Part shown: positions 7,038-22,338 of the stretch, in pieces
Layout of the letters: every line of letters starts with the position of its first letter
Position numbering within the stretch: the stretch's first letter is position 1
Source of the DNA: Bacteroidales bacterium
Lineage (GTDB): Bacteria > Bacteroidota > Bacteroidia > Bacteroidales > UBA3663
DNA: 64,000 nt
Direction: 5' to 3'
NCBI GenBank assembly: GCA_045627785.1
Contig: JAZQOF010000004.1
Span: forward strand, 53,948-117,947
Program-made: the position numbers and the translations under genes
The notes under the pieces: generated by a model
Database searches by the model: none
The model's input: only the letters and a program-made list of their open reading frames with translations
Told to the model about the DNA's origin: nothing

Positions 7038-8117
7038 GTGAAATATCTGAAGTTTTTCTTTATACCCTTACTTTACCTTTTTATAGGTACATTTATTACT
7101 ATCGAACTCCTGAAGATTATTCTTAATGGGAGTTCGATAGGATATTTGACATTGCTTATTCCACTCACGGCATTTACTGTTTTGCTTACTGTGATCGGAA
7201 TAGTAAATGCTTGGGTTCAATATCGAGTATTGCGCGATGATATTCTCGTGCATAGCTATGATATTAAAGAAATGCTTTGGCTTTATCTTCGCTGCTGGCT
7301 GGTACTTGTCTGTGGAATAACTCTTTCTGTAGTATTCTACTGGTTGCACGATTTGTTACCTGACGTTATAAAGGATTTGACGGAATCTCTTTATTATCTG
7401 TTTTATTTGATCTGTGGATTCCTGACGTTTATGTCATTGCTGAGTATTATCCATAGAGAGAAACTGAACGAAATCAAGTTGCATAATACAGAGAACGAGA
7501 ATCAGTTGCTGAAGGCACAGCTGAATCCTCATTTCCTTTACAACACATTGAATAATATTGATGCACTTGTATGGATTGATCAGGAGAGAGCCTCAAAGGC
7601 TGTTACTACACTTTCTGACTTGATGCGATATCTCACATATAGCAGCAAACAAGATAAGATTTCGATTAAGGAAGAAGTTATACATTTACAACAGCTTGTG
7701 GATCTTCAGAAGCTTCGTTTGAGCAACGATAAGGCATTGACATTCGATATTGATATTGACAATGATGAAGAAAAGATCTCGCCATTAATGATGATACCTT
7801 TGGTAGAGAACTGCTTCAAACATTGTGGTAATATCAATGAAGATGATGCTGTTAAAATCTCACTTCAGTTGAAGAACGGAGAACTTGTATTCAAGACCGA
7901 TAATAATCAGAAAGACCCAGCTAAGGATAATTCTTCTGCTGAAGAAATAAAAGATAATAAAAGTACAATAATCAAATCAAAGGGTAAAAAGAAAAACAGC
8001 GGCATTGGACTCGTAGTCCTCCGTCGCCGTCTTTCACTTCTTTATAATAATCGCCACAGTTTACTCACAGAAAGTAAAGATAGGCGTTACGTTACTGTCC
8101 TTAGAATCAAACTCTGA
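7038..8117 (+). CDS. LytS/YehU-type sensor histidine kinase (membrane)
   Basis: About four N-terminal TM helices, then a His_kinase block (LKAQLNPHFLYNTLNNI) and a HATPase region (ENCFKH ... GIGL). GTG start 18 nt after the GH95 stop. Confidence 0.75.
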   Translation: MKYLKFFFIPLLYLFIGTFITIELLKIILNGSSIGYLTLLIPLTAFTVLLTVIGIVNAWVQYRVLRDDILVHSYDIKEMLWLYLRCWLVLVCGITLSVVFYWLHDLLPDVIKDLTESLYYLFYLICGFLTFMSLLSIIHREKLNEIKLHNTENENQLLKAQLNPHFLYNTLNNIDALVWIDQERASKAVTTLSDLMRYLTYSSKQDKISIKEEVIHLQQLVDLQKLRLSNDKALTFDIDIDNDEEKISPLMMIPLVENCFKHCGNINEDDAVKISLQLKNGELVFKTDNNQKDPAKDNSSAEEIKDNKSTIIKSKGKKKNSGIGLVVLRRRLSLLYNNRHSLLTESKDRRYVTVLRIKL

Positions 8118-10670
8118 TGGCATATCAACCATAATGTGTTTGTTCTGTACATCTCCTTGGTGCATAAGCAGATCTTCACAAAGAGCATCTTCGATATAAT
8201 TCTGAATTGCGCGTTTCAAAGGACGTGCTCCATAAAGTCGGTCATAGCCCTTGTCAGCCAAGAAATCTTTTACTCTGTCAGAAATCTCGATGTTATAACC
8301 CATTTCTGCAATTCTTTCGAGCGAAGACTTCAGTTCGATATCTACAATCTTTCTGATATCATCATGTGAGAGTTGGTCGAACGAGATTATATCATCAATT
8401 CTGTTGATAAACTCTGGAGAGAATGTCTTCTTAAGTTCTTTCTGAACAATTGCCTGAGCCATCTCGTTTTGATGAGAATCAGATCGTACACCAAAACCGA
8501 CACCAGTACCGAAGTCATTTATCTGACGACTTCCGATGTTTGAAGTCATGATAATAATACAGTTCTTAAAATCAACTTTTCTACCTGAGGCATCTGTAAG
8601 ATGGCCTTCGTCAAAGAGCTGAAGCATAAGATTGTATACTTCCTTGTCAGCCTTTTCTATCTCATCGAAGAGAACAACGCTATAAGGATGACGACGAACC
8701 TGTTCCGTGAGTTGTCCACCTTCGTCATATCCAACGTATCCAGGAGCAGCACCAATCAGTCGGCTTGTGCTGTATTTCTCCATGAATTCACTCATGTCTA
8801 TGCGGATGAGGCTGTTTTTAGTTGCAAACAGTTCGTCGGCAAGCTTCTTTGCGAGATAAGTCTTTCCGACACCTGTAGGACCTAAGAACAGGAAAGTACC
8901 GATTGGTTTTGAAGGGTCTTTCAATCCTACGCGGTTTCGCTGTATAGCTTTTACAACCTTTTCAATAGCCTTGTCTTGACCGATTACTTCATTCTGTAGG
9001 GTCTTGCGAAGTGCAAGGAGTTTTTCGGATTCACTCGATGCTACCTTGGACATTGGAATACCTGTAATCTGAGCTACTACTTCAGCGATCTTATCAGCGT
9101 TGACAGTTGGTCGCTCATCTTTCTGGTGAGATTTCCAGTTGTCTTGTTCTTCTTTCAGCTTGTGCTCAAGATTTCGTTGCTGATCGCGATATGTTGCTGC
9201 TTGCTCATACATCTGAGAAAGGATAGCTTCGTCTTTCAACCGCTTTACATCTTCGATTTCTGCTTCAAGTTTCTCGAAGGTATCAGGAACAACTGCACTG
9301 AAGAGATGCATTCTCGAACCTGCCTCATCCATTGCATCTATGGCTTTATCTGGGAAGTTGCGGTCTGAGATATATCTTTCGGTAAGAGTTACACAAGCTT
9401 GTAGTGCATCTTCTGTGTAAGTCACATTATGATGTTCCTCGTAACGATCTTTTATATTATGTAAAATAGCAAGAGTATCGGAAGGAGATGTCGGTTCCAC
9501 AAGAATTTTCTGGAATCGACGTTCTAGTGCACCATCTTTTTCGATTGTCTTACGATATTCATCAAGAGTCGTAGATCCGATACATTGAATCATACCGCGA
9601 CTTAAGGCTGGCTTAAGCATATTGGCTGCATCCATTGAACCTTGAGCATTTCCGGCACCAACCATTGTGTGGATCTCATCAATATAGAGAATCACTTCAG
9701 GATGGTCTTCGAGTTCACGAATGATGTTCTTCAGTCTTTCCTCAAATTGACCGCGATATTTTGTTCCTGCAACAAGTCCTGCCATATCGAGCGATACGAC
9801 TCTTTTATCTGCTAACAACCAAGAAACCTTCTTTTCAAAGATTCGTTGAGCTAAGCCTTCAACGATTGCGCTCTTACCAACACCTGGTTCACCAAGCAGA
9901 ATCGGATTGTTCTTCTTTCTGCGTGAAAGAATCTGTGCGAGTCGTTCTATTTCGACTTCTCTTCCGACTACAAGATCAAGTTTTCCTTCGGCAGCGGCAT
10001 TCGTCAAGTCGAAACCAAAAGCATCAAGTGTTGGTGTGTCGCTTTCTTTATCAGAGCCATTCGCAGAGCGAGGAGATGCTTTCTTTGTCTTATTTCCTGA
10101 ATAAGGAGCTTCATCTTCGTCTTCTTCATCCTCATCGTAAGAAGAAACTGCCTTTGGGCTTTCCTTCTGTGGAGTTTCTGGGCTCTTTGATATCAAATCG
10201 GATGCATTGAGATTATTCTGTTCTTCCGGCTTGATTTTCTCAAGATCTGCTACATGTTTGTAGAATGAACTATAATCTACATTATATTGCTGAAGTAACT
10301 GAGACAATTGGCAAGTCTCATCTTTAAGAATTGCCAATACCACGTGTTCTGAATCTATAGTATTCTGCTTAAGCATCCTTGCCTCGAGTTGCGACAACTT
10401 AAGAGTGCGGTCAGCTTCCCGGCATAAAGGATTCTGTTCGTCTGTATTATCTTCTAAAGACCTATGTTCGTATAAATTCCATTCAATATGCCTTTTCAAA
10501 TCATCGAGATTAACACCTTGGCGCAACAATGCCTGAACGGCAATGCTGTTTCCATCTCGTAGTATTCCCAATACGAAATGCTCTGGACGTATTTGGTTAT
10601 TCTTAAGTCTTACAGCCTCTTCTTTGCTGTATTCTAATATCTGTCGTAAGTGTTCTGTGAACTTGTTCAT
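8061..10670 (-). CDS. clpC: ATP-dependent Clp protease ATP-binding subunit ClpC (class I AAA+)
   Basis: Two Clp_N repeats, two Walker A sites (GEPGVGKS, GPTGVGKT), a short UVR-like middle region (ClpC rather than ClpB length) and a VGF ClpP-docking-like loop. Confidence 0.85.
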   Translation of the reverse strand: MNKFTEHLRQILEYSKEEAVRLKNNQIRPEHFVLGILRDGNSIAVQALLRQGVNLDDLKRHIEWNLYEHRSLEDNTDEQNPLCREADRTLKLSQLEARMLKQNTIDSEHVVLAILKDETCQLSQLLQQYNVDYSSFYKHVADLEKIKPEEQNNLNASDLISKSPETPQKESPKAVSSYDEDEEDEDEAPYSGNKTKKASPRSANGSDKESDTPTLDAFGFDLTNAAAEGKLDLVVGREVEIERLAQILSRRKKNNPILLGEPGVGKSAIVEGLAQRIFEKKVSWLLADKRVVSLDMAGLVAGTKYRGQFEERLKNIIRELEDHPEVILYIDEIHTMVGAGNAQGSMDAANMLKPALSRGMIQCIGSTTLDEYRKTIEKDGALERRFQKILVEPTSPSDTLAILHNIKDRYEEHHNVTYTEDALQACVTLTERYISDRNFPDKAIDAMDEAGSRMHLFSAVVPDTFEKLEAEIEDVKRLKDEAILSQMYEQAATYRDQQRNLEHKLKEEQDNWKSHQKDERPTVNADKIAEVVAQITGIPMSKVASSESEKLLALRKTLQNEVIGQDKAIEKVVKAIQRNRVGLKDPSKPIGTFLFLGPTGVGKTYLAKKLADELFATKNSLIRIDMSEFMEKYSTSRLIGAAPGYVGYDEGGQLTEQVRRHPYSVVLFDEIEKADKEVYNLMLQLFDEGHLTDASGRKVDFKNCIIIMTSNIGSRQINDFGTGVGFGVRSDSHQNEMAQAIVQKELKKTFSPEFINRIDDIISFDQLSHDDIRKIVDIELKSSLERIAEMGYNIEISDRVKDFLADKGYDRLYGARPLKRAIQNYIEDALCEDLLMHQGDVQNKHIMVDMPSEFDSKDSNVTPIFTFCE

Positions 10671-12150: not shown

Positions 12151-12313
12151 ATCTTTATTTTTATTTACGCAAAAATAACAAAAAAAGATTTATTAGTGTG
12201 ATAAATGCGTTTTTATTTCTTGAAATAACATAATTTCTTTGATAATATTTGTGAAATTAAACACTATAAACTAAAAAAACACTTTTTATTGGCAAGGATT
12301 AGAAATTTTTATC

Positions 12314-12321
12314 TATCTTTG
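12314..12321 (+). promoter_or_regulatory. -7 promoter box TATCTTTG upstream of the STAS/RsbW-ABC-RelA/SpoT operon
   Basis: Exact TAnnTTTG match in a 207-bp AT-rich divergent intergenic region, 36 nt before the ATG at 12358. Confidence 0.45.
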
Positions 12322-12357
12322 TCTTGTTTATTGTATATTGATTTTACGTGAATACCA

Positions 12358-12765
12358 ATGAATAAAAAGATTGTCTTTAAGAACAAAATAGAAGAGGTAA
12401 CAAGAGTAGCCGAATTTGTTGAACAAGTCGGCGAAGAGCTTGAACTCTCATTCGCAGTAATAAACAGCATTCAACTTGCAATTGAAGAAGCTGTGGTAAA
12501 CGTGATTAATTACGCTTATCCAAAAGACAAAGAATGTGAGGCTTATCTGGAAGTCTCTAAAAAAGAAAATGCAGTTTATTTTGTTCTGTCTGATACAGGT
12601 GTCCCTTTTGATCCAACAGCTAAGTCTGATCCGGATTTGACACTTTCTGCTGATGAACGTCCTATTGGAGGTTTAGGAATATTCCTGGTGAAACAAATCA
12701 TGAATGAAGTCACTTATGAATATTCTGACGGAAAGAATAATCTCATAATGATAAAAAGAATTTGA
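12358..12765 (+). CDS. RsbW/SpoIIAB-like anti-sigma-type serine protein kinase (HATPase_c_2)
   Basis: 135 aa. N-box EEAVVNVINYAY, G1 SDTGVPFDP and G2 GGLGIFLV. Confidence 0.8.
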   Translation: MNKKIVFKNKIEEVTRVAEFVEQVGEELELSFAVINSIQLAIEEAVVNVINYAYPKDKECEAYLEVSKKENAVYFVLSDTGVPFDPTAKSDPDLTLSADERPIGGLGIFLVKQIMNEVTYEYSDGKNNLIMIKRI

Positions 12766-12788
12766 TAAACAATTTAATATTTTGAAAT

Positions 12789-13094
12789 ATGACTACAAAT
12801 ATAAACATTCAAGGTACAAACGCTGTTATTGAGCTCGAAGGTCGTCTTGATACACCAAGTTCACCAGCTGTTGAAGCAGAAGTAAACAAAGTTTCTGGAA
12901 ATGCAGAAGTCACAGAATGTACTGTAGATTGCAGCAAGCTTACTTATATTTCTTCTTCTGGTTTACGTATTCTTATCTCTTTGCATAAGAGCTTCTTGAA
13001 AAAACAGGGTAAGCTTACTATCAAAAGCCTTGCTCCTGAAATTAAGGAAGTATTTGATATGACAGGTTTATACAGCATCTTTACTATTGTATAA
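12789..13094 (+). CDS. STAS-domain anti-sigma-factor antagonist (SpoIIAA/RsbV-like)
   Basis: 101 aa. The canonical phospho-acceptor context TYISSSGLRIL corresponds to DSSGL in SpoIIAA/RsbV. Confidence 0.8.
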   Translation: MTTNINIQGTNAVIELEGRLDTPSSPAVEAEVNKVSGNAEVTECTVDCSKLTYISSSGLRILISLHKSFLKKQGKLTIKSLAPEIKEVFDMTGLYSIFTIV

Positions 13095-13153
13095 TAAATC
13101 TGTCGCTATTTATTAATTAGATTCTTGGTGTTTTAGTTAGACCGATTTTTTTA

Positions 13154-16084
13154 ATGAACGATCACGTACTTTCGGCATTAATAAATCTCTTCGCACTTTT
13201 TACGTCTTCTGCTGAACTTGATAAAGATAAGGCAAGAAAAAGTGTAATGAACTACCTCATAAGTTTCTTTTCAATAAGAAATTATGAGGAGTTTTTGGAT
13301 ATTTATGATGGTCTTTGTGACGTTTATGAAATGGGTCATTCCGATCTCGAAAAGATTATTCCTTCTATTGCAAACAAACTTACTGATCGCATTCCTAAAG
13401 TTGATCAGGCTTTATTGGTTTTGCGTTTCATGGAGTTCTCTTCTCAGAATCGTGAAGAATACATAAAACAGCGTTTCTTATTTGAGAAAGTTGCTAATAC
13501 ATTCAATGTAGAAGCAAAGACTTTTGAAGATTTCGATAGTTTTATTCAATCAAAGAAGAGTGAGAACGTAGGTGTAGAAAGTATCGAAGGTTCTGATTGT
13601 GTATTACGAGTTCTGCGTCTCCCTCAATATCATAAGGTAGTTACTGCCTTTGATGGAAACGTGCCAATCAAGATGAATGATATGCCAATTCATCCGGGCA
13701 TGTTTGTGATCTGGCCAGAGAATGGTATTATCAAATCTTCGAAATTTCAACCTAAATATTTTTCTCATGTAGCTGAATTGCTGGGTCAAAGTACTCGTCT
13801 CACTTCAATTCAAATGAGTGGACGAGATCTTGACTTTAGGTTTAAGAATAGCAACAACGGACTTCATAATTTCACATTCGATCTTCATTCTGGCGAATTC
13901 GTTGCTATAATGGGTGGAAGTGGTGTCGGCAAATCCACATTACTCAGTATTCTTAACGGATCACTAAGACCTCAGTCGGGCACTCTTTCTATCAATGGAC
14001 TTTCTCTTTATGATAATGTTGAGAGATTAAAGCCTTTTATAGGATTTGTACCTCAAGATGATCTTCTTATCGAAGAATTGACTGTGTATGAGAATCTTTT
14101 ATATACAGCTAAATTCTGTTTTGCTAATCTTTCCGAGAAGGAATTACGCGAAAAGGTTGACAATACATTAAAAGATCTCGGATTAAGTTCAATCCAACAT
14201 CTTAAGGTCGGATCTCCGTTGAATAAGACAATTTCCGGAGGGCAGAGAAAACGATTGAATATTGCGCTTGAGTTGATTCGAGAGCCGTCGATCCTTTTGC
14301 TAGATGAACCTACAAGCGGACTTTCTTCTGCGGATTCAGAGAAGGTCGTTTATCTTCTGAAAGAGCAGACTTATAAAGGAAAATTGGTGATAGTAAACAT
14401 TCACCAACCTTCTTCGGACATATATAAACTCTTCAATCGTCTTTGGATTCTTGATACTGGAGGATATCCGATTTTCGATGGTAATCCTATTGACGCTCCT
14501 ACAGAATTTAAGCAAGCAGCTGATTATACAGATGCTTTCAGTTCTGTTTGTCCAACATGCGGAAATATCAATCCGGAATTGGTATTGAACATTATCGATG
14601 AGAGAATTCTTGACAGCAATGGACAGTTAACAACTCGAAGAAAGAAATCTCCAGAAGATTGGCATGCAATATATAGGAGCAAAATCGGAGAGCTTGACGA
14701 TATCAAAGAAATAGCTTTGCCTGAATCAAATCAGAAGAAGCCAAATGCTCTTAAGCAGTTCTTCATTTATCTCAAACGTAATGTAAAGGCAAAACTTGCA
14801 GACCGACAGTTTCTCGCAATCGCTTTACTTGAAGCGCCAGTTCTTGCATGGATAGTTGCAAGGCTTTCTCGGTACGAAGGAGAAGATGGATATACTCTGT
14901 TTGAGAATATCAATATGATTTCATTCCTTTTTATGGCAATTATTGTCGCTGTATTTATGGGAATGAGTATCTGTGCAGAAGAAATATTCAAAGATCGTGC
15001 ATTGCTGAAACGAGAGAAATTCTTACAACTCTCGCATGGCGCATATATAACATCAAAGATATTTCAAGCAGCTGTAATTGCTGTTTTTCAGACAGGTTTA
15101 TTTATACTTGTTGCAAATAGTATAATGGAGATTCACGGACTTTGGATGCAATGGTGGCTGATATTGTTCTCATCTTCTTTCTTGGCTGCCCTTACAGGAT
15201 TGTTGCTTTCACAGACACTGAATTCTATTGTATCAATCTATATTACTATTCCACTTCTGCTTATTCCACAAATATTACTTTGCGGTGTGGTTATTGATTT
15301 CGATAGCCTCAATCATAACAGCAAGACTGGAAATGTGCCCGTTATTGCAGATTTGATTCCTACTCGTTGGTCTTTTGAGGCACTTGCTGTAACTCAAATG
15401 ACTGACAATGAATATACATCAAATTTCTTTGAGGAGCAAGCGGCACAATATGAATTACAGTTTGCCCGTCTAGGATTTTTGCATGAACTTGATGTTAAGG
15501 TCAAAGAAGCTAAGATCGACAAGCGACTTGGTAATGAAGATTGGGGCAAGTATCTGCCAATAGTCGTAAATGAAAGCAAGTTGTTTTCAGAAAGATGGGA
15601 TGTTGAACCATTCTCTGGTTTGGATCAGCTGACTATAGAAAGATTCACAGCTGAGGTTGCTGAAGATTATCGCTCTTGGGTTCAAAAGACAGATTCGATT
15701 CTCTTCAAGCGTAGTCAGGTTTATACTCGTATTATTGATAAGACAAAACAGATTCTAATTGATGATTTAGGATCTACCGGAAAACTGATTGATCTGCAAT
15801 ATAAAAGTTGTAACCAATCACTACAGGATCGCTTGGTTGGAATTGATGGACATAAACTTGTTCGTGTGGTTGGTGATCGTTTGGTCCCTTGTGCAGGACA
15901 AATCTATCTTAAGCCTTCAAGTCATATTGGTAGGGCTCCTTTTTATAGTCATGTCAAGATTCTTGGATCTCAGGAAGTTCCGACTCTTTGGTACAACCTT
16001 TGTGTTCTTGCAATAATGATGGTATTAGTATCTCTTATGCTTTATACCGATTGTCCTGGAAAATATATCAGAAATAATAAATAA
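13154..16084 (+). CDS. ABCG/ABC-2-type fused ATPase-permease with an extra ~225-aa N-terminal domain and a ~200-aa insertion before the last TM helix
   Basis: Walker A GGSGVGKST, signature ISGGQRKRL, Walker B ILLLDEPTSGL and an ABCG-type H-loop IHQPS. Five TM helices are followed by a long soluble segment and a final TM helix (LWYNLCVLAIMMVLVSLMLY). Confidence 0.8.
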   Translation: MNDHVLSALINLFALFTSSAELDKDKARKSVMNYLISFFSIRNYEEFLDIYDGLCDVYEMGHSDLEKIIPSIANKLTDRIPKVDQALLVLRFMEFSSQNREEYIKQRFLFEKVANTFNVEAKTFEDFDSFIQSKKSENVGVESIEGSDCVLRVLRLPQYHKVVTAFDGNVPIKMNDMPIHPGMFVIWPENGIIKSSKFQPKYFSHVAELLGQSTRLTSIQMSGRDLDFRFKNSNNGLHNFTFDLHSGEFVAIMGGSGVGKSTLLSILNGSLRPQSGTLSINGLSLYDNVERLKPFIGFVPQDDLLIEELTVYENLLYTAKFCFANLSEKELREKVDNTLKDLGLSSIQHLKVGSPLNKTISGGQRKRLNIALELIREPSILLLDEPTSGLSSADSEKVVYLLKEQTYKGKLVIVNIHQPSSDIYKLFNRLWILDTGGYPIFDGNPIDAPTEFKQAADYTDAFSSVCPTCGNINPELVLNIIDERILDSNGQLTTRRKKSPEDWHAIYRSKIGELDDIKEIALPESNQKKPNALKQFFIYLKRNVKAKLADRQFLAIALLEAPVLAWIVARLSRYEGEDGYTLFENINMISFLFMAIIVAVFMGMSICAEEIFKDRALLKREKFLQLSHGAYITSKIFQAAVIAVFQTGLFILVANSIMEIHGLWMQWWLILFSSSFLAALTGLLLSQTLNSIVSIYITIPLLLIPQILLCGVVIDFDSLNHNSKTGNVPVIADLIPTRWSFEALAVTQMTDNEYTSNFFEEQAAQYELQFARLGFLHELDVKVKEAKIDKRLGNEDWGKYLPIVVNESKLFSERWDVEPFSGLDQLTIERFTAEVAEDYRSWVQKTDSILFKRSQVYTRIIDKTKQILIDDLGSTGKLIDLQYKSCNQSLQDRLVGIDGHKLVRVVGDRLVPCAGQIYLKPSSHIGRAPFYSHVKILGSQEVPTLWYNLCVLAIMMVLVSLMLYTDCPGKYIRNNK

Positions 16085-16091
16085 AATTCTT

Positions 16092-16970
16092 ATGAAATCT
16101 ACTAAATTTTTAATTCATGTTGTCCTCTTTGGTTCAGCTATCATGTTTGGATCATGTTCAGGGTCTGCTAAGAAAGAAGCAGAAAAAGAAGCTAAGAAGC
16201 AAGTTCAGACAGTAAAGGCAGTTGTTATTGCTGAAGAGCTGAAAAAAGAGTGCGTTGAGATTTATAATCAAACAGCTTCTGAACAAAACAAGTTTATTGA
16301 GAATCTTGCAGAAATGAAATCGGAACTTGCTGATGTTCCAGTCAAGTTTTTTATGCCTTTGAATGTTGCGGGAAGAGCCCAGACTTTATGGCAGAAAGCA
16401 CAAGTATTAGGTTTCTATAATGTTGATAGAAATGTCGATAAGTTCTTGTTCGGAGGTAATAATGGAAATGCAGAACGTGAGGCATCAATGCTTTCTCTTG
16501 CGACAGATCTGAATCTCTCTACTGATTTTATTAATGGAGATGAATTGAATAGTGATAATCGTGCAGAGACATTGCAGAAGATCAATGATTTCAATACACA
16601 GATGTTTGCAAAGGCTTTGGATAATGACAACGCTCAGTTCGCAACCGTATCTATGGCGTATTCTATCATTGAATCCACAATCTGCAAGATCGGTTTGGCT
16701 AAGCTTTGGGACGATGAAGTAGACCAGCAGAAGATTTTTAATGTTGTGATCGAGCAAATGGAAATGTTGCGCAATTTTACAAAGCTTTACACAACTCTCA
16801 AACCATATTATGATTCTTTGTCACCACTTGAACCACTTGTTCAGAAGATCCAGAAGGTGGCAAATGCGGATAAGGGAACAGAACTTGATAACGCATTATA
16901 TGATTATATCTCTTATGCAAATGAGATGCGCGATCATGTTCTCACAGAGTTCAATCTTGTTGTAAAATAA
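16092..16970 (+). CDS. Hypothetical lipoprotein (helical, no recognised family)
   Basis: Signal peptide with lipobox (IMFGSCSGS). 8-nt gap from the ABC gene and 6 nt to the next gene. Confidence 0.6.
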   Translation: MKSTKFLIHVVLFGSAIMFGSCSGSAKKEAEKEAKKQVQTVKAVVIAEELKKECVEIYNQTASEQNKFIENLAEMKSELADVPVKFFMPLNVAGRAQTLWQKAQVLGFYNVDRNVDKFLFGGNNGNAEREASMLSLATDLNLSTDFINGDELNSDNRAETLQKINDFNTQMFAKALDNDNAQFATVSMAYSIIESTICKIGLAKLWDDEVDQQKIFNVVIEQMEMLRNFTKLYTTLKPYYDSLSPLEPLVQKIQKVANADKGTELDNALYDYISYANEMRDHVLTEFNLVVK

Positions 16971-16976
16971 TATTAT

Positions 16977-17858
16977 ATGTCAATCGAAGAGGTAGCGAGG
17001 AGAATTGAGAATGACCTGAAATGTCAACTCGACGGATGTGGAATCATGTTTCGCATGTTTTCGCGTGTCAAAACACCATTCTCTCTTGCGCATAAGATGA
17101 GTCTCAAAGGCGATAAGTATCGTAGCGGAAATGCAAAGATACAGGACGTCATTGGTTTACGAATCGTTGTATATTTCCCAGATGATGTCGAGATTGCCGA
17201 ATTGCTGGTTAATAAAAGCCCTGTTCTTGACAGATCTATCGATGATCCTGATTCCTGCACCTTTAAGCCTCAGCGATTGAATATTACCTGTCGAATACCT
17301 GAAGAGTATATCGACGATTTCCGTGCAGGACTACCTGAAGAGTTTGCGCCTTACATCGATGAGTCATATGAGGTTCAAATCAGAACGATTTTCTCGGAAG
17401 GATGGCATGAAGTTGAACATGATCTTCGATACAAATGTAAGGAAGATTGGGTCGGTTACGAAAACTATTCGCGCACATTAAATGGAGTGATTGCTACTCT
17501 TGAAACTGCCGAATGGAGCATGACTTCACTCTTCAAGCAAATGGCTTATGATAATTATTGCAATGGTAATTATTCTGCTATGCTTCGAAATCATCTTCGC
17601 ATTCGTATCAAAGGGAAAGGTCTTTCTCCAAAACTCTGCGAGTTCCTCAGAAATCATACAGATGTAGCTTTTTCTGTATATAATATGGATCGAATGGTTT
17701 TCTTGTTCAGCGTACTGCTTCATAAGAGCCGGATTACATTAGATTACGACACGGCATTGTTCTTGATCAACCGAATGGAAATACAGAATATGGATCTGAT
17801 GGCTCTTGAAGATGAAGAGACGAAAGATAAGATCGGTAGATATCTGAGAAACGAATAA
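16977..17858 (+). CDS. Stand-alone RelA/SpoT-domain protein (small alarmone synthetase-like nucleotide pyrophosphokinase fold)
   Basis: Synthetase-domain motifs RVKTPFSLAHKM, QDVIGLRIVVYF and YEVQIRTIFSEGWHEVEHDLRYK. No HD hydrolase, TGS or ACT region. About 110 aa of uncharacterised C-terminal extension. Confidence 0.75.
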   Translation: MSIEEVARRIENDLKCQLDGCGIMFRMFSRVKTPFSLAHKMSLKGDKYRSGNAKIQDVIGLRIVVYFPDDVEIAELLVNKSPVLDRSIDDPDSCTFKPQRLNITCRIPEEYIDDFRAGLPEEFAPYIDESYEVQIRTIFSEGWHEVEHDLRYKCKEDWVGYENYSRTLNGVIATLETAEWSMTSLFKQMAYDNYCNGNYSAMLRNHLRIRIKGKGLSPKLCEFLRNHTDVAFSVYNMDRMVFLFSVLLHKSRITLDYDTALFLINRMEIQNMDLMALEDEETKDKIGRYLRNE

Positions 17859-17920: not shown

Positions 17921-18790
17921 ATGAACCGTTTAATCTCTTTTTTACTATTATTGTTTGTAGTTAATGAAGGGTTTGCACAATTCCCAGGATGGAAAATGCC
18001 AAAACGAGAAAAGAAAATTTATAGTCTTTCGGTAGGAAATCTCAAGATGGATATCGATGCAAACTGTGGAGGAAGAATTGTATCCCTTAAACATGATACA
18101 ACAGAGATAATCTCACAGATAGAGTTCCCAAATATGTTCGGAAGTACTTTCTGGACAAGTCCTCAGAAAGAATGGAATTGGCCTCCTGTTAAAGAACATG
18201 ATACAATGCCTTATACAGTGGAGGAGAAGGATGGAGGTCTTGTAATGACAAGTGAGTTGTCAGAGAAATTTCCAATCCGTATTGTTAAGACTTTCAAGAC
18301 AGAACCTTCTGATAATTCTTTCGTTGTCACTTATACAATGATTAATGAATCAGATACAGAAAGAAAAGTAGCACCTTGGGAGATTACACGAGTATTAAGT
18401 CAAGGATCTGTTTTCTTCGATGCTCCTGTTGAAGGAATCTGGCCTTCTGGACTTATGCCTTTCGAAAATAAGAATGGATATGCTTGGTTTGATATCAATC
18501 ATGATGAGACTCAAAACCGTAAGACTAATTCTGACGGTAAAGGTTGGCTCGCATATATTGACAAAGGACTTCTTCTCGTTAAGCGATTCAATGATCTGAC
18601 TCCAGAACAGCCTGCTCCAGGCGAAGCTGAAATTCAGGTTTATGTTCACCAAGGAAATGTCTATGTCGAACTTGAAAGTCAAGGCGAATACGTAACCCTT
18701 AAACCGGGTGAAAAGAGTGATTGGACCGTAAGATGGTATCTTGTTCCATTTACAGGTTTTGAAGACTTGAATAAGATCTTAAATCAATAA
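17921..18790 (+). CDS. Secreted hypothetical protein (possibly DUF4380/aldose-epimerase-like beta-sandwich)
   Basis: 289 aa with a signal peptide (LLLLFVVNEGFAQ). The GGRIVSL block is reminiscent of DUF4380; the family call is tentative. Confidence 0.5.
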   Translation: MNRLISFLLLLFVVNEGFAQFPGWKMPKREKKIYSLSVGNLKMDIDANCGGRIVSLKHDTTEIISQIEFPNMFGSTFWTSPQKEWNWPPVKEHDTMPYTVEEKDGGLVMTSELSEKFPIRIVKTFKTEPSDNSFVVTYTMINESDTERKVAPWEITRVLSQGSVFFDAPVEGIWPSGLMPFENKNGYAWFDINHDETQNRKTNSDGKGWLAYIDKGLLLVKRFNDLTPEQPAPGEAEIQVYVHQGNVYVELESQGEYVTLKPGEKSDWTVRWYLVPFTGFEDLNKILNQ

Positions 18791-18918: not shown

Positions 18919-18992
18919 GCCTCTTTAGCTCAGTTGGCCAGAGCACGTGATTTGTAATCTCGGGGTCGTTGGTTCGAATCCGACAAGAGGCT
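18919..18992 (+). tRNA. tRNA-Thr (anticodon UGU)
   Basis: Folded by hand. Acceptor GCCTCTT/AAGAGGC, D arm GCTC..GAGC, anticodon loop TTTGTAA and T arm GTTGG-TTCGAAT-CCGAC. One T:T mismatch in the anticodon stem. Confidence 0.9.
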
Positions 18993-19020
18993 CAAAGATG
19001 GAGTTAATCTATTTTTTGAT

Positions 19021-19092
19021 GGTCCATTCGTCTATCGGTTAGGACGAGAGATTTTCATTCTCTAAAGAGCAGTTCGACTCTGCTATGGACTA
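19021..19092 (+). tRNA. tRNA-Glu (anticodon UUC)
   Basis: Folded by hand. Acceptor GGTCCAT/ATGGACT (one G:U pair), D arm GTCT..GGAC, anticodon stem AGAGA/TCTCT with loop TTTTCAT, and T arm AGCAG-TTCGACT-CTGCT. Confidence 0.9.
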
Positions 19093-19100
19093 CAGAATCG

Positions 19101-19128: not shown

Positions 19129-19154
19129 TATAAGTACAAGAATTTTTGTTGTAT

Positions 19155-19255
19155 ACATTATGGTGAACCTGAAAAAGGTTTGAAAGTGGAAATCCGGTGA
19201 GATTCTGGAGCTGTGCCCGCAACTGTGATTAAGTCAGAATACCCGCCATAATAAA
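19155..19255 (+). promoter_or_regulatory. Cobalamin (B12) riboswitch aptamer
   Basis: Conserved core GGAAATCCGGTGAGATTCTGGAGCTGTGCCCGCAACTGT and a B12-box-like AAGTCAGAATACCCGCC (19231-19247). P1 pairing TTATGG (19158-19163) with CCATAA (19246-19251). Lies directly upstream of a TonB-dependent receptor gene. Confidence 0.85.
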
Positions 19256-19288
19256 GTTTTAACTACAAGTCTCGGGGGCAAGGTTTGT

Positions 19289-21247
19289 TTGAAACGAACG
19301 ATGAGAAGAATATTGCTATGCGTATTGCTTCATGCTTTCGCATTTGTTTTGTGTGCTGAAGATTTGCACATAGATACTTTACGAACAAAACAATTACAAG
19401 AGGTTTCTGTCGATCGACCTTTTGAATCTTATCATTCACAAATTACTACTTCAACTCCTTTGTTTGTCCTATCGTCCGAAGATTTTAGTTCTCTCGGATT
19501 ACAGGATATTGCTCAAGCATTAAAGATTGCCAATGGCGTCTCGGTAAAAGATTATGGTGGAATGGGTGGAATGAAGACCGTTTCTGTCAGAAATCTTGGC
19601 GCAGAACATACGGGTGTTGTCTATGATGGCGTACCTGTAAGTAATTGCCAGGCTGGACAGATCGACATTTCAAGATTCTCGACCGATAATCTTCAATCAA
19701 TTCGAATGGGAATTGGCTCTCCAATAGATATGCTTTCTCCTGCGTCAATTGAGCCTTTTAGTGGAAATCTTTTGTTGCAGACTGATCCTCAATCACCTTC
19801 ATATATTAAGGCTTCGTATGGTTCGTTTAATACGGTTAAAGCTACTTCAAAGATTAATGTTTATAATCGGAATGGCTATTCTCTTTATAGTTTGTTGAAC
19901 TATAATCACACGGATGGAGATTATCCTTTTACATTATCCAATGGATCGTTGAAGACACGGGAAAAACGTAAAAATGCTAATATAAATACCTTTAATGCAG
20001 AAGTGAACTTTTCTGCACAGTCTTTTCTTGACACAAAAATCTATTACTTTTACAGTGATCGTCATTTGCCTGGTAATATCACTTTGTATGATGACTGGGC
20101 AAATGAACGATTGTATGACGAGAATTTTTTCGTTCAGAGCAAATTTAATCATAAACTAAAGGAGCCGTTTGAAGTTCAAGGATTGATCAAGTATAATCAT
20201 TCATGGAACAGATATTTCGATGGAAAAGAGTCGGTCGAAAACAGTAAGGTGATGCATAACTATGTCTATAGACAAAATGAAGTATATGCTTCGTTTGGAG
20301 TTAGTTATAAAGTCAAATCTTTACAAGACAAACTTCAGTTTTCTTTAGTCGGCGACGAACTATGGAATACTCTCAAGACGAATATTCCCGAATATGATTC
20401 CAAGTATAGGAATACGACTTATATTACTCTTCGTTCGAAGTTCACTAACGATAGGATTCAAGCGATTACAAGCTTAGTTTATACTCATCTTAATGAGTCG
20501 AACGTGCAATACAGTTTTGATCCGAATGTTTCTCTTAGTTACAAGGTATTCAATCAAAGAGATTTCTTTTTGAGAGCTTCTTGGCGAAAGGCATTTCGTT
20601 TGCCGACATTCAATGATATGTATTATTACAGAATAGGAAATCATGATCTTCGTCCGGAGAAAACAGATGAGATGAATTTTGGTTTCACATATTCGGATAA
20701 CTATTCTTTCGGTGAAGTTTCTTTTACCGCCGACGTTTTCTACAACCGTGTGAAAGATATGATTGTCGCAGTTCCTACGACATTTGCCTGGAAGATGTCG
20801 AACTATGGAAAAGTTAGAATCAAAGGCGTTAATCTGAATGCAGAGTATCATCACAAATCTGTTTTCCTTTCTGTCGGATATAGTTATAATGATGTAAGAA
20901 ATGTGACAAATAAAGAATCTGATTATTATAATTCTCAGGTTCCATATACCTCAAAGCATAGCGGAAATGCAGCTTTGATATGGAAGAATTCTTATGTCGA
21001 TTTCGGTTATAGTATGGATTGGATGGGAGAGAGATATTCATCTTTGATGCACGACAAGAGATATAAGTTAAATGCTTATGTCGATCAGTCTTTGACGCTT
21101 TCTCATTGCTTTAATTACCGTAAATTCGCTATCGAAACTTCACTTTCCTGCAGGAATATTTTCGATCAACAATATGAGATTATACAATTCTACCCAATGC
21201 CGGGCAGACAAATAGAAATGCAAACTAAAATTATATTAAACAAATGA
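19289..21247 (+). CDS. btuB: TonB-dependent outer-membrane receptor, BtuB-like vitamin B12 transporter
   Basis: Plug-domain motifs (VSVRNLG, VVYDGVP), a small ~650-aa barrel size like BtuB, and an upstream cobalamin riboswitch. The ORF-track start is a TTG at 19289; the ATG at 19301 (MRRILLCVLL) is equally plausible. Confidence 0.8.
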   Translation: MKRTMRRILLCVLLHAFAFVLCAEDLHIDTLRTKQLQEVSVDRPFESYHSQITTSTPLFVLSSEDFSSLGLQDIAQALKIANGVSVKDYGGMGGMKTVSVRNLGAEHTGVVYDGVPVSNCQAGQIDISRFSTDNLQSIRMGIGSPIDMLSPASIEPFSGNLLLQTDPQSPSYIKASYGSFNTVKATSKINVYNRNGYSLYSLLNYNHTDGDYPFTLSNGSLKTREKRKNANINTFNAEVNFSAQSFLDTKIYYFYSDRHLPGNITLYDDWANERLYDENFFVQSKFNHKLKEPFEVQGLIKYNHSWNRYFDGKESVENSKVMHNYVYRQNEVYASFGVSYKVKSLQDKLQFSLVGDELWNTLKTNIPEYDSKYRNTTYITLRSKFTNDRIQAITSLVYTHLNESNVQYSFDPNVSLSYKVFNQRDFFLRASWRKAFRLPTFNDMYYYRIGNHDLRPEKTDEMNFGFTYSDNYSFGEVSFTADVFYNRVKDMIVAVPTTFAWKMSNYGKVRIKGVNLNAEYHHKSVFLSVGYSYNDVRNVTNKESDYYNSQVPYTSKHSGNAALIWKNSYVDFGYSMDWMGERYSSLMHDKRYKLNAYVDQSLTLSHCFNYRKFAIETSLSCRNIFDQQYEIIQFYPMPGRQIEMQTKIILNK

Positions 21248-22338
21248 AAAAGAAACTTTTATTGCCATTGATGGCTGTTTTTTGTCTGGCTTCATGTTCA
21301 GACGATGATGTAACAAAAGAACCAGAGTATATTGCTCCTTGGGATATTTATTTCCTCAATGAAGGTTCTTGGGGAATGAACGATGCTTCAATCACTACTT
21401 ACAACGAAACTTCCAAGGTTTATTTCGAAGATCTTTATTATTCTTCAAATGACAAGAAACTTGGCGATGTTGCTCAGGATATTGTCTATGGCGACAATCA
21501 TTGTTTGTATGTTGCAGTTTCAGAGTCAAGATACATTGCCAAGCTTGATGCAAACTGCAAAGAGTTGACAAGATATAAGACTTCCGATACAGAAATGCAG
21601 CCTCGTAGCCTTTTGCTCAAGGACGGATTCCTCTATGCATCTTTCTACGGAACTGAAACTGAAGGTGGTATCGTCGCAAAGATGGATACAGCTACATTGG
21701 CAGTTGTTCAAAGAGTAAGTGTCGGTTCTTATCCAGAGCAGATTGCCGAAATCAATGGCGTGATTGCTGTCTGCAATTCCGGTTATGGTTACGGAAACAC
21801 ACTCAGTATGATTGATGTGAATAGTTTCTCAGTAAAGAAAGAACTTGCTCTTCCTCACATGAATCCTCAGGATATCGTTGTTTGCAACGGTAAGTTCTAT
21901 TGTAATACTACAGAATACGATGAATTCTGGAATTCTGTCAGCAGAATTATTGAAGTTGATCCAGTTAGTTTCGGAACAAAGGAAATTGCTGAAGCTTTCT
22001 ATATGTGTCCAGTTGGAGATCAGTTGCTTATGATTAAGCAATCAACAAACTACTATACAACTCCTTATACATACGAAAATACTTTCTATACTTTCGATTC
22101 AAAGACAGGAAAAGTAACCGAAGGAAAGAAAGACGAAACAGGTACATTCAAGCTTTACGATCGTGGAATTTACGGAATGTTCTGTAGTCCTGACCAAAAG
22201 AAACTCTATGTTTGTGTAAGCAATCAGGAAGGTTCTGCTTATGTCAATAGTGATGTCTTTGTATTTGATTTGAGTGGCAAACAGCTTGATGTTTTCAAGG
22301 CAGGAGTTCTTACAAGTAAGGTTTGTTTTGCGAAATAG
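21244..22338 (+). CDS. Surface lipoprotein, YncE-type beta-propeller; candidate BtuG-like cobalamin-binding protein
   Basis: Lipobox (VFCLASCSDDD), propeller-like repeats (YFLNEGSWGMNDASIT..., LGDVAQDI..., YVAVSESRYIAKLD) and an ATGA start/stop overlap with btuB. The BtuG assignment is inferred from context. Confidence 0.5.
   Translation: MKKKLLLPLMAVFCLASCSDDDVTKEPEYIAPWDIYFLNEGSWGMNDASITTYNETSKVYFEDLYYSSNDKKLGDVAQDIVYGDNHCLYVAVSESRYIAKLDANCKELTRYKTSDTEMQPRSLLLKDGFLYASFYGTETEGGIVAKMDTATLAVVQRVSVGSYPEQIAEINGVIAVCNSGYGYGNTLSMIDVNSFSVKKELALPHMNPQDIVVCNGKFYCNTTEYDEFWNSVSRIIEVDPVSFGTKEIAEAFYMCPVGDQLLMIKQSTNYYTTPYTYENTFYTFDSKTGKVTEGKKDETGTFKLYDRGIYGMFCSPDQKKLYVCVSNQEGSAYVNSDVFVFDLSGKQLDVFKAGVLTSKVCFAK

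Follow-up and report, generated by a model that had tools for sequence, protein, structure and literature searches.

Linkage of predicted partner-switch genes with those of an ABCG-type exporter, a lipoprotein and a RelA/SpoT-fold enzyme in Bacteroidales

A cluster of five genes was analyzed in a 64-kb stretch of DNA from a Bacteroidales bacterium, referred to below as the window. All five genes are aligned on the plus strand. In this order they code for K (an RsbW-type kinase, 12358-12765), S (a STAS protein, 12789-13094), ABC (an ATP-binding cassette protein, 13154-16084), L (a lipoprotein, 16092-16970) and R (a RelA/SpoT-fold protein, 16977-17858), and the intergenic gaps are 23, 59, 7 and 6 nt, respectively. 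In related genomes the parts of this cluster recur together far above the local background and in many orders. For this reason a functional link between the partner switch formed by K and S, the pair of ABC and L, and the RelA/SpoT-fold enzyme is well supported, as judged from gene neighborhoods. By analogy with known systems, we propose a sigma-independent partner switch, in which S, depending on its phosphorylation state, would bind directly to the co-encoded small alarmone synthetase (SAS) R, to the ABC exporter, or to both, and thereby control its target. The probability of this reading was estimated to be about 0.5.

Linkage of the genes in related genomes

For a comparison anchored on ABC, a total of 80 species-representative loci were collected, and the open reading frames (ORFs) called therein were searched with profiles of K, S, L, R and the phosphatase PP2C. 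A subset of 57 loci carries at least 4 kb on both sides of ABC (the well-flanked loci). Full-length ABC orthologs (960-990 aa, at least 46% identity) were found in Prevotella, Bacteroidaceae, Muribaculaceae, Alistipes and Parabacteroides. L adjoins ABC in all of the 57 well-flanked loci and in 78 of the 80 loci overall. Within 4 kb of ABC in the well-flanked loci, S and K were each detected in 18 cases, PP2C in 16 and R in 7, and all 7 loci with R also carry both S and K. Within 5 kb of ABC, the density of STAS genes was 3.56 per 100 kb, as against 0.18 farther away, a 20-fold difference. The 28 loci carrying S or K showed 19 distinct arrangements, including [PK]-ABC-L-S-R, L-ABC-[PK]-S, S<-ABC-L-[PK]< and S-K-ABC-L. 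The proximity survives this many rearrangements, which speaks for selection on the linkage and not for descent from one common layout.

Based on the gene content of these loci, the cluster appears to be built in layers. ABC and L form what looks like an invariant pair, the partner switch is added at about one-third of the species, and the R-type enzyme would be an optional add-on in two lineages. The first-pass annotation of this DNA had taken the five genes as one unit and considered that a loss of synteny in related genomes would speak against it. The parts do recur together in many genomes and many orders, in agreement with that proposal. The unit is, however, not indivisible, because ABC and L mostly stand without the switch, and R is optional and often located elsewhere.

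A second comparison was anchored on R. The metagenome scan yielded 22 clusters whose identity to the R of the window is 52% or more and 16 more distant clusters, for each of which a neighborhood of 5 kb was considered. K, S or PP2C was present within this distance, together with neither ABC nor L, in 8 of the 22 close clusters. The orders found near R include R-K-S (L100, L109), S-[PK]-R (L122), R-S (L099) and R-SBP-P-K-S (L101). At the L119 locus the genes are aligned as R-permease-ATPase-S-NMT1-P-K inside one tight operon. At L009, an S stands after R and differs from the S of the L011 ABC cluster at 2 alignment positions. From the association of R with K, S or PP2C apart from ABC and L, and from this match of S, R appears to be tied to the partner switch itself and not to one transporter. 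Neither K, S nor PP2C was detected near R in the 16 more distant clusters.

Eight Prevotella species carry the order [dCache-HAMP-PP2C-K]-ABC-L-S-R2 or a variant in which the kinase stands alone, and S and R2 are separated by 3-6 nt. R2 (about 366 aa) carries a RelA_SpoT domain with 32% identity to the R of the window over the catalytic core alone, the C-terminal half being unrelated, and keeps the G-loop FGYNSLH. R and R2 differ in subfamily, indicating that two SAS families were recruited to the same cluster in two lineages. Downstream from R2, at a distance of 0-3 nt, starts an ORF of 199 aa (L013 15178-15777; also in L015, L023, L027, L032, L034 and L088). In its product, an N-terminal half without annotation precedes a C-terminal GerE/LuxR helix-turn-helix (HTH) domain (1.4e-18); the window has no such protein.

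The history of the window layout can be followed through its closest relatives. A 92%-identity relative (L172) shows the identical five-gene order and the same flanks. At 73% ABC identity (L171 and L008), the order is K-S-L'-ABC, followed by a block of 8 kb and then by L-R; the block carries genes for carbonic anhydrase and GH31 and two GH43 genes (L171 665-14274, and L008). These two loci contain two lipoprotein paralogs, one of 279 aa before ABC and one of 293 aa before R. The nearest species-level representative (L011, 60%) carries L-ABC-[sensor-PP2C]-K-S. Taken together, these layouts indicate that the compact, phosphatase-less order K-S-ABC-L-R is a recent, lineage-specific configuration of more widely linked parts.

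The five gene products and their operon

K is a stand-alone serine kinase of the RsbW/SpoIIAB type, 135 aa in length, with a match to Pfam HATPase_c_2 (PF13581, 1.7e-25). Its N, G1 (LSDTGVPFD) and G2 (GGLGIF) boxes are RsbW-like by inspection. The NCBIfam equivalog scores were low, 52 bits for RsbW (cutoff 145) and 41 bits for SpoIIAB (cutoff 135). In related species, proteins of 750-830 aa with the domain order dCache-HAMP-SpoIIE(PP2C)-HATPase_c_2 end in a domain homologous to K. In the alignment with one such fusion protein (L010, residues 651-786), the identity was 48% (E 7e-34).

S is a predicted phosphoprotein of 101 aa with a single STAS domain (PF01740, 3.3e-17), and matches STAS/STAS_2 alone in Pfam. 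It scored 71 bits against the NCBIfam superfamily of anti-sigma-factor antagonists (TIGR00377, cutoff 53) and 51.5 bits against the SpoIIAA equivalog (cutoff 115). Residues 53-59 read YISSSGL, with Ser56 (nt 12954-12956) as the predicted phospho-acceptor; this residue aligns with Ser58 of SpoIIAA. The sequence YISSSGLR is kept with minor substitutions in 35 S homologs from the fetched loci. A six-frame search detected no second STAS protein or kinase in the window.

ABC is a protein of 976 aa, predicted to be a half-transporter of the ABCG fold. The Pfam matches place ABC_tran (6.6e-33) at residues 237-388 and ABC2_membrane (2.3e-16) at 535-748, that is, the nucleotide-binding domain (NBD) before the transmembrane domain (TMD). 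In the AlphaFold2 model (pLDDT 86.9), four parts can be distinguished. A family-specific N-domain, predicted to be cytoplasmic (residues 1-215, nt 13154-13798), consists of a helical bundle (3-131) and a small beta domain (139-200). It is followed by the NBD (residues about 220-510, nt 13811-14683), a six-helix TMD of the ABC-2 type (residues about 532-750, nt 14747-15403), and a long helical and beta extension (residues 759-976, nt 15428-16081), ending in an extra, seventh transmembrane helix. The best Foldseek matches were ABCG5/G8, ABCG2, ABCG1 and plant ABCGs (E 1e-24 to 1e-22, target TM 0.76-0.79). The score against TIGR00955 was 242 (cutoff 736), which places ABC outside that eukaryotic subfamily. 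On domain order and modeled fold, ABC is classed as an exporter of the ABCG fold (type V).

ABC thus shares with the half-transporters ABCG5/G8, ABCG2 and ABCG1 the order of NBD before TMD and the type V fold. It differs from them in its low identity (20-24%), in the N-domain of 215 aa and the C-terminal extension of 220 aa with the seventh transmembrane helix, both unique to the Bacteroidales family, and in its obligate lipoprotein partner. A bacterial exporter of the ABCG class with an N-terminal phospho-signaling domain is known in mycobacteria, the FHA-regulated Rv1747. The N-domain of ABC occurs in all of the 80 orthologs, irrespective of a switch in the vicinity, and its profile gave nothing significant against PDB and Pfam. 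A TerB-like identity of this domain was considered and found unsupported (one member, E 0.2).

L is a lipoprotein of 292 aa, in which a hydrophobic segment is followed by Cys22. A lipoprotein signal was found by pattern match in 85 of 86 L homologs and by eye in the 86th, in agreement with the first-pass call. L belongs to no Pfam family. Its AlphaFold2 model is all-helical (pLDDT 78, pTM 0.78), and the fold search of this model against PDB gave no match (best E 0.54).

R is an SAS-like protein of 293 aa. The match to Pfam RelA_SpoT (PF04607; 5.6e-14, 52.8 bits, cutoff 27) covers residues 29-156. A synthetase domain (residues about 25-160) is followed by a family-specific helical C-terminal domain of about 130 aa (about 160-293). 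The motifs RxKxxxSxxxK, DxxGxR, ExQxRT and HxxxYK are invariant in 18 homologs. The nearest solved relatives are SAS of the RelQ/RelP type (E 4e-8), and the score against the YjbM equivalog was 32 bits (cutoff 320). R shares the RelA_SpoT synthetase domain and its catalytic motifs with RelP and RelQ, but the alignment extends over about 130 residues, R adds the helical C-terminal domain of 130 aa, and the sequence TFKPQRLN (residues 95-102) stands at the position of the canonical G-loop GYxSxH. The G-loop is the guanine-binding motif. Within the R family, T-F-x-P-x-R-L-N is invariant, suggesting that the acceptor substrate of R may differ from GDP or GTP. By catalytic domain and motifs R resembles the SAS of the RelP/RelQ type, and departs from these enzymes in the G-loop.

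The R family comprises 2341 homologs, and 210 clusters at 50% identity and E<1e-30. P0333, P0337, P0340 and about 30 further representatives are long forms (590-680 aa); past the R-like region, these proteins carry about 300 residues that match no Pfam family. A member of 427 aa (P0322) carries a weak HD_4 domain, of the alarmone-hydrolase type, after the synthetase.

The profile and structure searches that the first-pass annotation had called for thus assigned domains to K, S, ABC and R and, through Foldseek, the ABCG fold to ABC, leaving L with no family or fold match. The identities it had given, a kinase, a STAS protein with ISSSGL, a protein with NBD before TMD and a RelA/SpoT-fold protein, agree with the Pfam matches, with the inspected boxes and with the motif in the 35 homologs. 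Its coordinates for the five ORFs, their gaps and the 207-bp AT-rich upstream region were also confirmed.

From their arrangement, the genes K-S-ABC-L-R probably form one operon and would be co-transcribed. A terminator scan detected no terminator-like hairpin on the plus strand within the cluster. The AT-rich region of 207 bp (12151-12357) lies between K and a patatin gene, and is a candidate region of divergent promoters; the GC content is about 0.29 in the 400-bp segment 12000-12399, which includes this spacer. A Bacteroidetes-type -7 box, TATCTTTG, is located at 12314-12321 on the plus strand, 36 nt before the ATG of K, and TATTTTTG at 12170-12177 on the minus strand faces the patatin gene. 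TAnnTTTG occurs 67 times in the window, as against 60 +/- 7 expected, and is thus not enriched. The -7 box noted in the first-pass annotation is thus present, but, the motif occurring at chance frequency, TATCTTTG by itself is weak evidence, compatible with a promoter. A promoter scan with the sigma-70 consensus was uninformative here, the host being a member of Bacteroidetes.

Candidate circuit and alternative explanations

STAS/RsbW modules normally control sigma factors. No sigma domain was found by Pfam in the cluster and the scanned flanking genes, and a query of an extracytoplasmic function (ECF) sigma factor gave no tblastn match in the window. Among the Pfam-annotated related neighborhoods, no sigma factor gene adjoins the cluster, and the sole sigma gene therein is that of an ECF sigma factor about 8 kb from R in L009. 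As no sigma factor gene accompanies the cluster, the canonical output of a partner switch is missing.

The six-frame search of the 64-kb window also detected neither PP2C nor remnants of PP2C. In relatives, K is usually fused to, or located beside, a membrane sensor of the dCache-HAMP-SpoIIE(PP2C) type, as at the 16 well-flanked loci with PP2C, and its absence is therefore specific to the lineage of the window. The first-pass statement that neither a sigma factor nor a PP2C gene is nearby thus holds for the window and, as to sigma factors, for the surroundings of the clusters in relatives, but not for PP2C in relatives. Kinases that stand alone, with no PP2C in the vicinity, are also found at other loci (L020, L021, L031, L034, L046, L062, L100 and L109). 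The lineage of the window has probably lost the sensor-phosphatase gene from the cluster. In that case a PP2C from another part of the genome would reset S, or the module would depend on the kinase and ATP status alone.

Different combinations of switch genes were also observed near transporters. In Parabacteroides (L078 13954-17847, and L080), a different partner-switch input is aligned convergently with ABC-L, comprising a response regulator of the REC-SpoIIE(PP2C) type, two histidine kinases, a stand-alone RsbW-type kinase and a STAS protein. Paralogous modules of dCache-HAMP-PP2C(-kinase) and STAS adjoin other transporters (L006 14091-18889; L099 4097-7314; L119 4576-13666; L001 886-9805), which include CitMHS citrate-type carriers, an SDF dicarboxylate symporter, an NMT1-type ABC importer and C39-peptidase ABC exporters. 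These cases suggest a general pairing of switches and transporters in Bacteroidales, with STAS control of transporters as a general mode.

For the cluster in the window, the following circuit can be proposed on the model of SiaABCD and SypE/SypA. K would phosphorylate S on Ser56. In relatives, a periplasmic dCache sensor would act through HAMP on the PP2C domain, fused to or beside K, which would dephosphorylate S upon binding of an extracytoplasmic ligand. One phospho-form of S would then bind and switch its effectors. The first candidate is R, whereby the output of alarmone or pyrophosphorylated nucleotide would be altered. The second candidate, instead of R or together with it, is ABC, which S would contact at the cytoplasmic N-domain or the NBD. 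The narrower proposal, a phosphorelay of dCache sensor-PP2C, RsbW-type kinase and STAS adaptor with an SAS as its direct output, with or without the ABCG-type exporter, is made only tentatively.

The closest worked-out analog is SiaABCD of Pseudomonas aeruginosa, in which the membrane PP2C SiaA and the kinase SiaB set the phosphorylation state of SiaC, and SiaC binds and activates the diguanylate cyclase SiaD, with no sigma factor involved (PMC7278518). The likeness, drawn here from the genes, is that a sensor-PP2C and an RsbW-like kinase would set a small adaptor that is co-encoded with a second-messenger synthase. SiaA is also the best NCBIfam match of the sensor-phosphatase half of the relatives' proteins, at a sub-threshold score of 69.5 bits (cutoff 700). 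SiaC belongs to a separate family, whereas S, the adaptor of the present cluster, is a classical STAS protein (PF01740) whose predicted acceptor is a Ser. In place of a GGDEF cyclase, a RelA/SpoT-type pyrophosphokinase is the candidate effector, the cluster includes an ABCG-type exporter and a lipoprotein, and the window lacks the phosphatase. The cluster resembles SiaABCD in logic, and is not a member of it.

STAS proteins acting on non-sigma targets have been described, such as SypA and BtrV (PMC8256260) and All4160 (PMC13555669). In SypE/SypA of Vibrio fischeri, BtrU/V/W of Bordetella and HenR/All4160 of Anabaena, the STAS phosphoprotein is the output, as proposed here, but the targets are polysaccharide, type III secretion and a glycosyltransferase, with neither an SAS nor an ABCG-type transporter. 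Like the Bacteroidales fusions, SypE unites a kinase with a PP2C domain (PMC8256260), but it senses through a receiver domain instead of dCache-HAMP. The systems RsbV-RsbW-SigB of Bacillus and SpoIIAA-SpoIIAB-SigF share with the cluster the folds, the phospho-serine context and the pairing of S and K genes, and the S-[P]K-R order of L122 mirrors spoIIAA-spoIIAB-sigF; they differ in that no sigma gene is present here and the equivalog scores are far under the cutoffs. In Mycobacterium tuberculosis, the multidomain PP2C-kinase-STAS regulator Rv1364c, described as tuning SigF, and the predicted SAS Rv1366 (PMC8622095) may offer a similar combination, Rv1364c/Rv1365c/Rv1366, their adjacency being taken from the locus numbers alone; no described functional link between Rv1364c and Rv1366 was found.

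The first-pass view that the cluster matches no described system therefore does not stand, since its proposed logic is that of SiaABCD (PMC7278518), and SypE/SypA and HenR/All4160 are likewise sigma-free. Full-text searches of the literature gave no paper linking partner switching or STAS proteins with Bacteroides, none joining partner switching, STAS and an alarmone synthetase, and none on an anti-sigma factor antagonist in B. thetaiotaomicron that describes this system. Non-sigma partner switches are already known, while an SAS and an ABCG-type exporter with its lipoprotein have, as far as we could find, not been described as their associated effectors.

Several alternative explanations were considered. 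S or K might bind the NBD or the N-domain of ABC, as MlaB acts on MlaF, a known STAS-ABC pair, and R would then be an unconnected neighboring housekeeping SAS gene. The switch does flank ABC and L in the absence of R at at least 11 well-flanked species loci, switch paralogs stand beside the CitMHS, SDF and NMT1-ABC transporters, and the unique N-domain of 215 aa could serve as a docking site. However, this N-domain is present in all 80 orthologs regardless of a nearby switch, S scored 20.3 bits against MlaB (NF033618, cutoff 90), and Pfam showed nothing like MlaD or MlaE in the cluster. Moreover, the 8 clusters in which R homologs stand in several orders beside K, S or PP2C apart from ABC and L, and the second SAS subfamily located 3-6 nt past S in Prevotella, are not expected of an unconnected R, and control of transport alone is unlikely. 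The signal might also flow in the opposite direction, the nucleotide product of R being sensed by S or K and biasing the switch toward the transporter or, in Prevotella, the LuxR-type regulator as output. The linkage data are the same for this model as for the control of R by S, as they carry no direction; RsbW-type kinases are ATP-dependent, and a STAS review lists among its references a report of GTP binding by SpoIIAA (PMC8256260). Nucleotide binding by S would have to be supposed, however, and in SiaABCD the nucleotide synthase is located downstream (PMC7278518), which makes R as the input rather improbable.

K and S might instead act on a distant target, such as a sigma factor or other regulator, while ABC and L on one hand and R on the other would be independent genes packed into a single transcription unit in this one lineage. 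In agreement with such a juxtaposition, the exact order K-S-ABC-L-R is confined to close relatives (L172), the cluster is split at 73% ABC identity by the 8-kb block with glycoside hydrolase genes (L171), and most ABC and L loci carry no switch. The 20-fold enrichment of STAS genes near ABC, the 19 arrangements that keep the proximity, the independent linkage of switch and R in other contexts and the recruitment of two SAS subfamilies all argue against chance, and we regard it as improbable. Single-domain RelA/SpoT enzymes also include toxins of toxin-antitoxin systems and fused defense proteins (10.1101/2021.04.30.441581, PMC9712102), so that the cluster could be a toxSAS or anti-phage module with a neighboring gene as the antitoxin. 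This is very improbable, because the PDB relatives of R are RelP/RelQ and not CapRel, FaRel or Tas1, the R gene is widespread, chromosomal and vertically conserved, its upstream neighbor is an exported lipoprotein, implausible as an antitoxin, and a Pfam scan of the cluster and its flanks showed no hydrolase or antitoxin-like neighbor. A PADLOC scan gave generic ABC ATPase matches alone, with no specific match for the five proteins and none of any kind for K, S, L and R, and the defense reading was rejected.

The control of R or ABC by S, the reading that we prefer, has to be weighed against several observations. No switch gene was present within 4 kb at 35 of the 57 well-flanked ABC and L loci, or near R in 14 of the 22 close R clusters, many of which lie on short contigs, indicating that the links are facultative. 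The acceptor motif of R at the G-loop is non-canonical, and the SAS-like Rv1366 of M. tuberculosis was reported to be catalytically inactive (PMC8622095). Neither R-STAS nor R-kinase fusions were found among the 10 long members of the R family scanned. As the window lacks PP2C, its switch could be degenerate. The LuxR/GerE HTH protein after R2 could be the true output of the switch in Prevotella, and, with switch paralogs beside CitMHS carriers, an NMT1-type ABC importer and C39 ABC exporters, the hub may be a general regulator of transport.

Post-translational regulation of single-domain alarmone synthetases is largely unknown outside Firmicutes and essentially unstudied in Bacteroidales, the dominant order of gut and rumen. 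If phosphorylation of the STAS protein switches an SAS, a new class of output would be added to partner-switching systems, in the form of a circuit like SiaABCD, with an alarmone or pyrophosphorylated nucleotide as its product in place of c-di-GMP. Extracytoplasmic ligand sensing by dCache would then be tied to alarmone signaling, providing gut and rumen Bacteroidales with a ribosome-independent route from envelope or nutrient sensing into stringent-type signaling. The same circuit would offer a testable handle on the conserved, uncharacterized pair of ABCG-like exporter and lipoprotein.

Neighboring genes in the window

Downstream from R, after 62 nt, begins an ORF for a secreted DUF4380/mutarotase-like protein of 289 aa (17921-18790). 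The spacer carries no plus-strand TAnnTTTG, and the ORF may be co-transcribed with R. It was considered as a sixth gene of the module and dropped, because its homolog is located on the opposite strand in L008; it probably lies outside the module. Farther downstream are tRNA-Thr(TGT) (18919-18993) and tRNA-Glu(TTC) (19021-19093), and a cobalamin riboswitch (19144-19264) immediately before the gene for a TonB-dependent receptor (19289-21247), followed by an ORF of 364 aa (stretch 19289-22338). The stretch of riboswitch and receptor is probably a B12 uptake locus, unrelated to the five-gene cluster.

On the upstream side, 6 kb from R, a Clp ATPase of 869 aa is encoded on the minus strand (8061-10670). 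In a metagenome contig (L004 7485-10894), an R homolog begins 2 nt past the gene for an AAA+ chaperone of the ClpB/ClpC type, which is homologous to this Clp ATPase, and the association may be a remnant of synteny or a coincidence.

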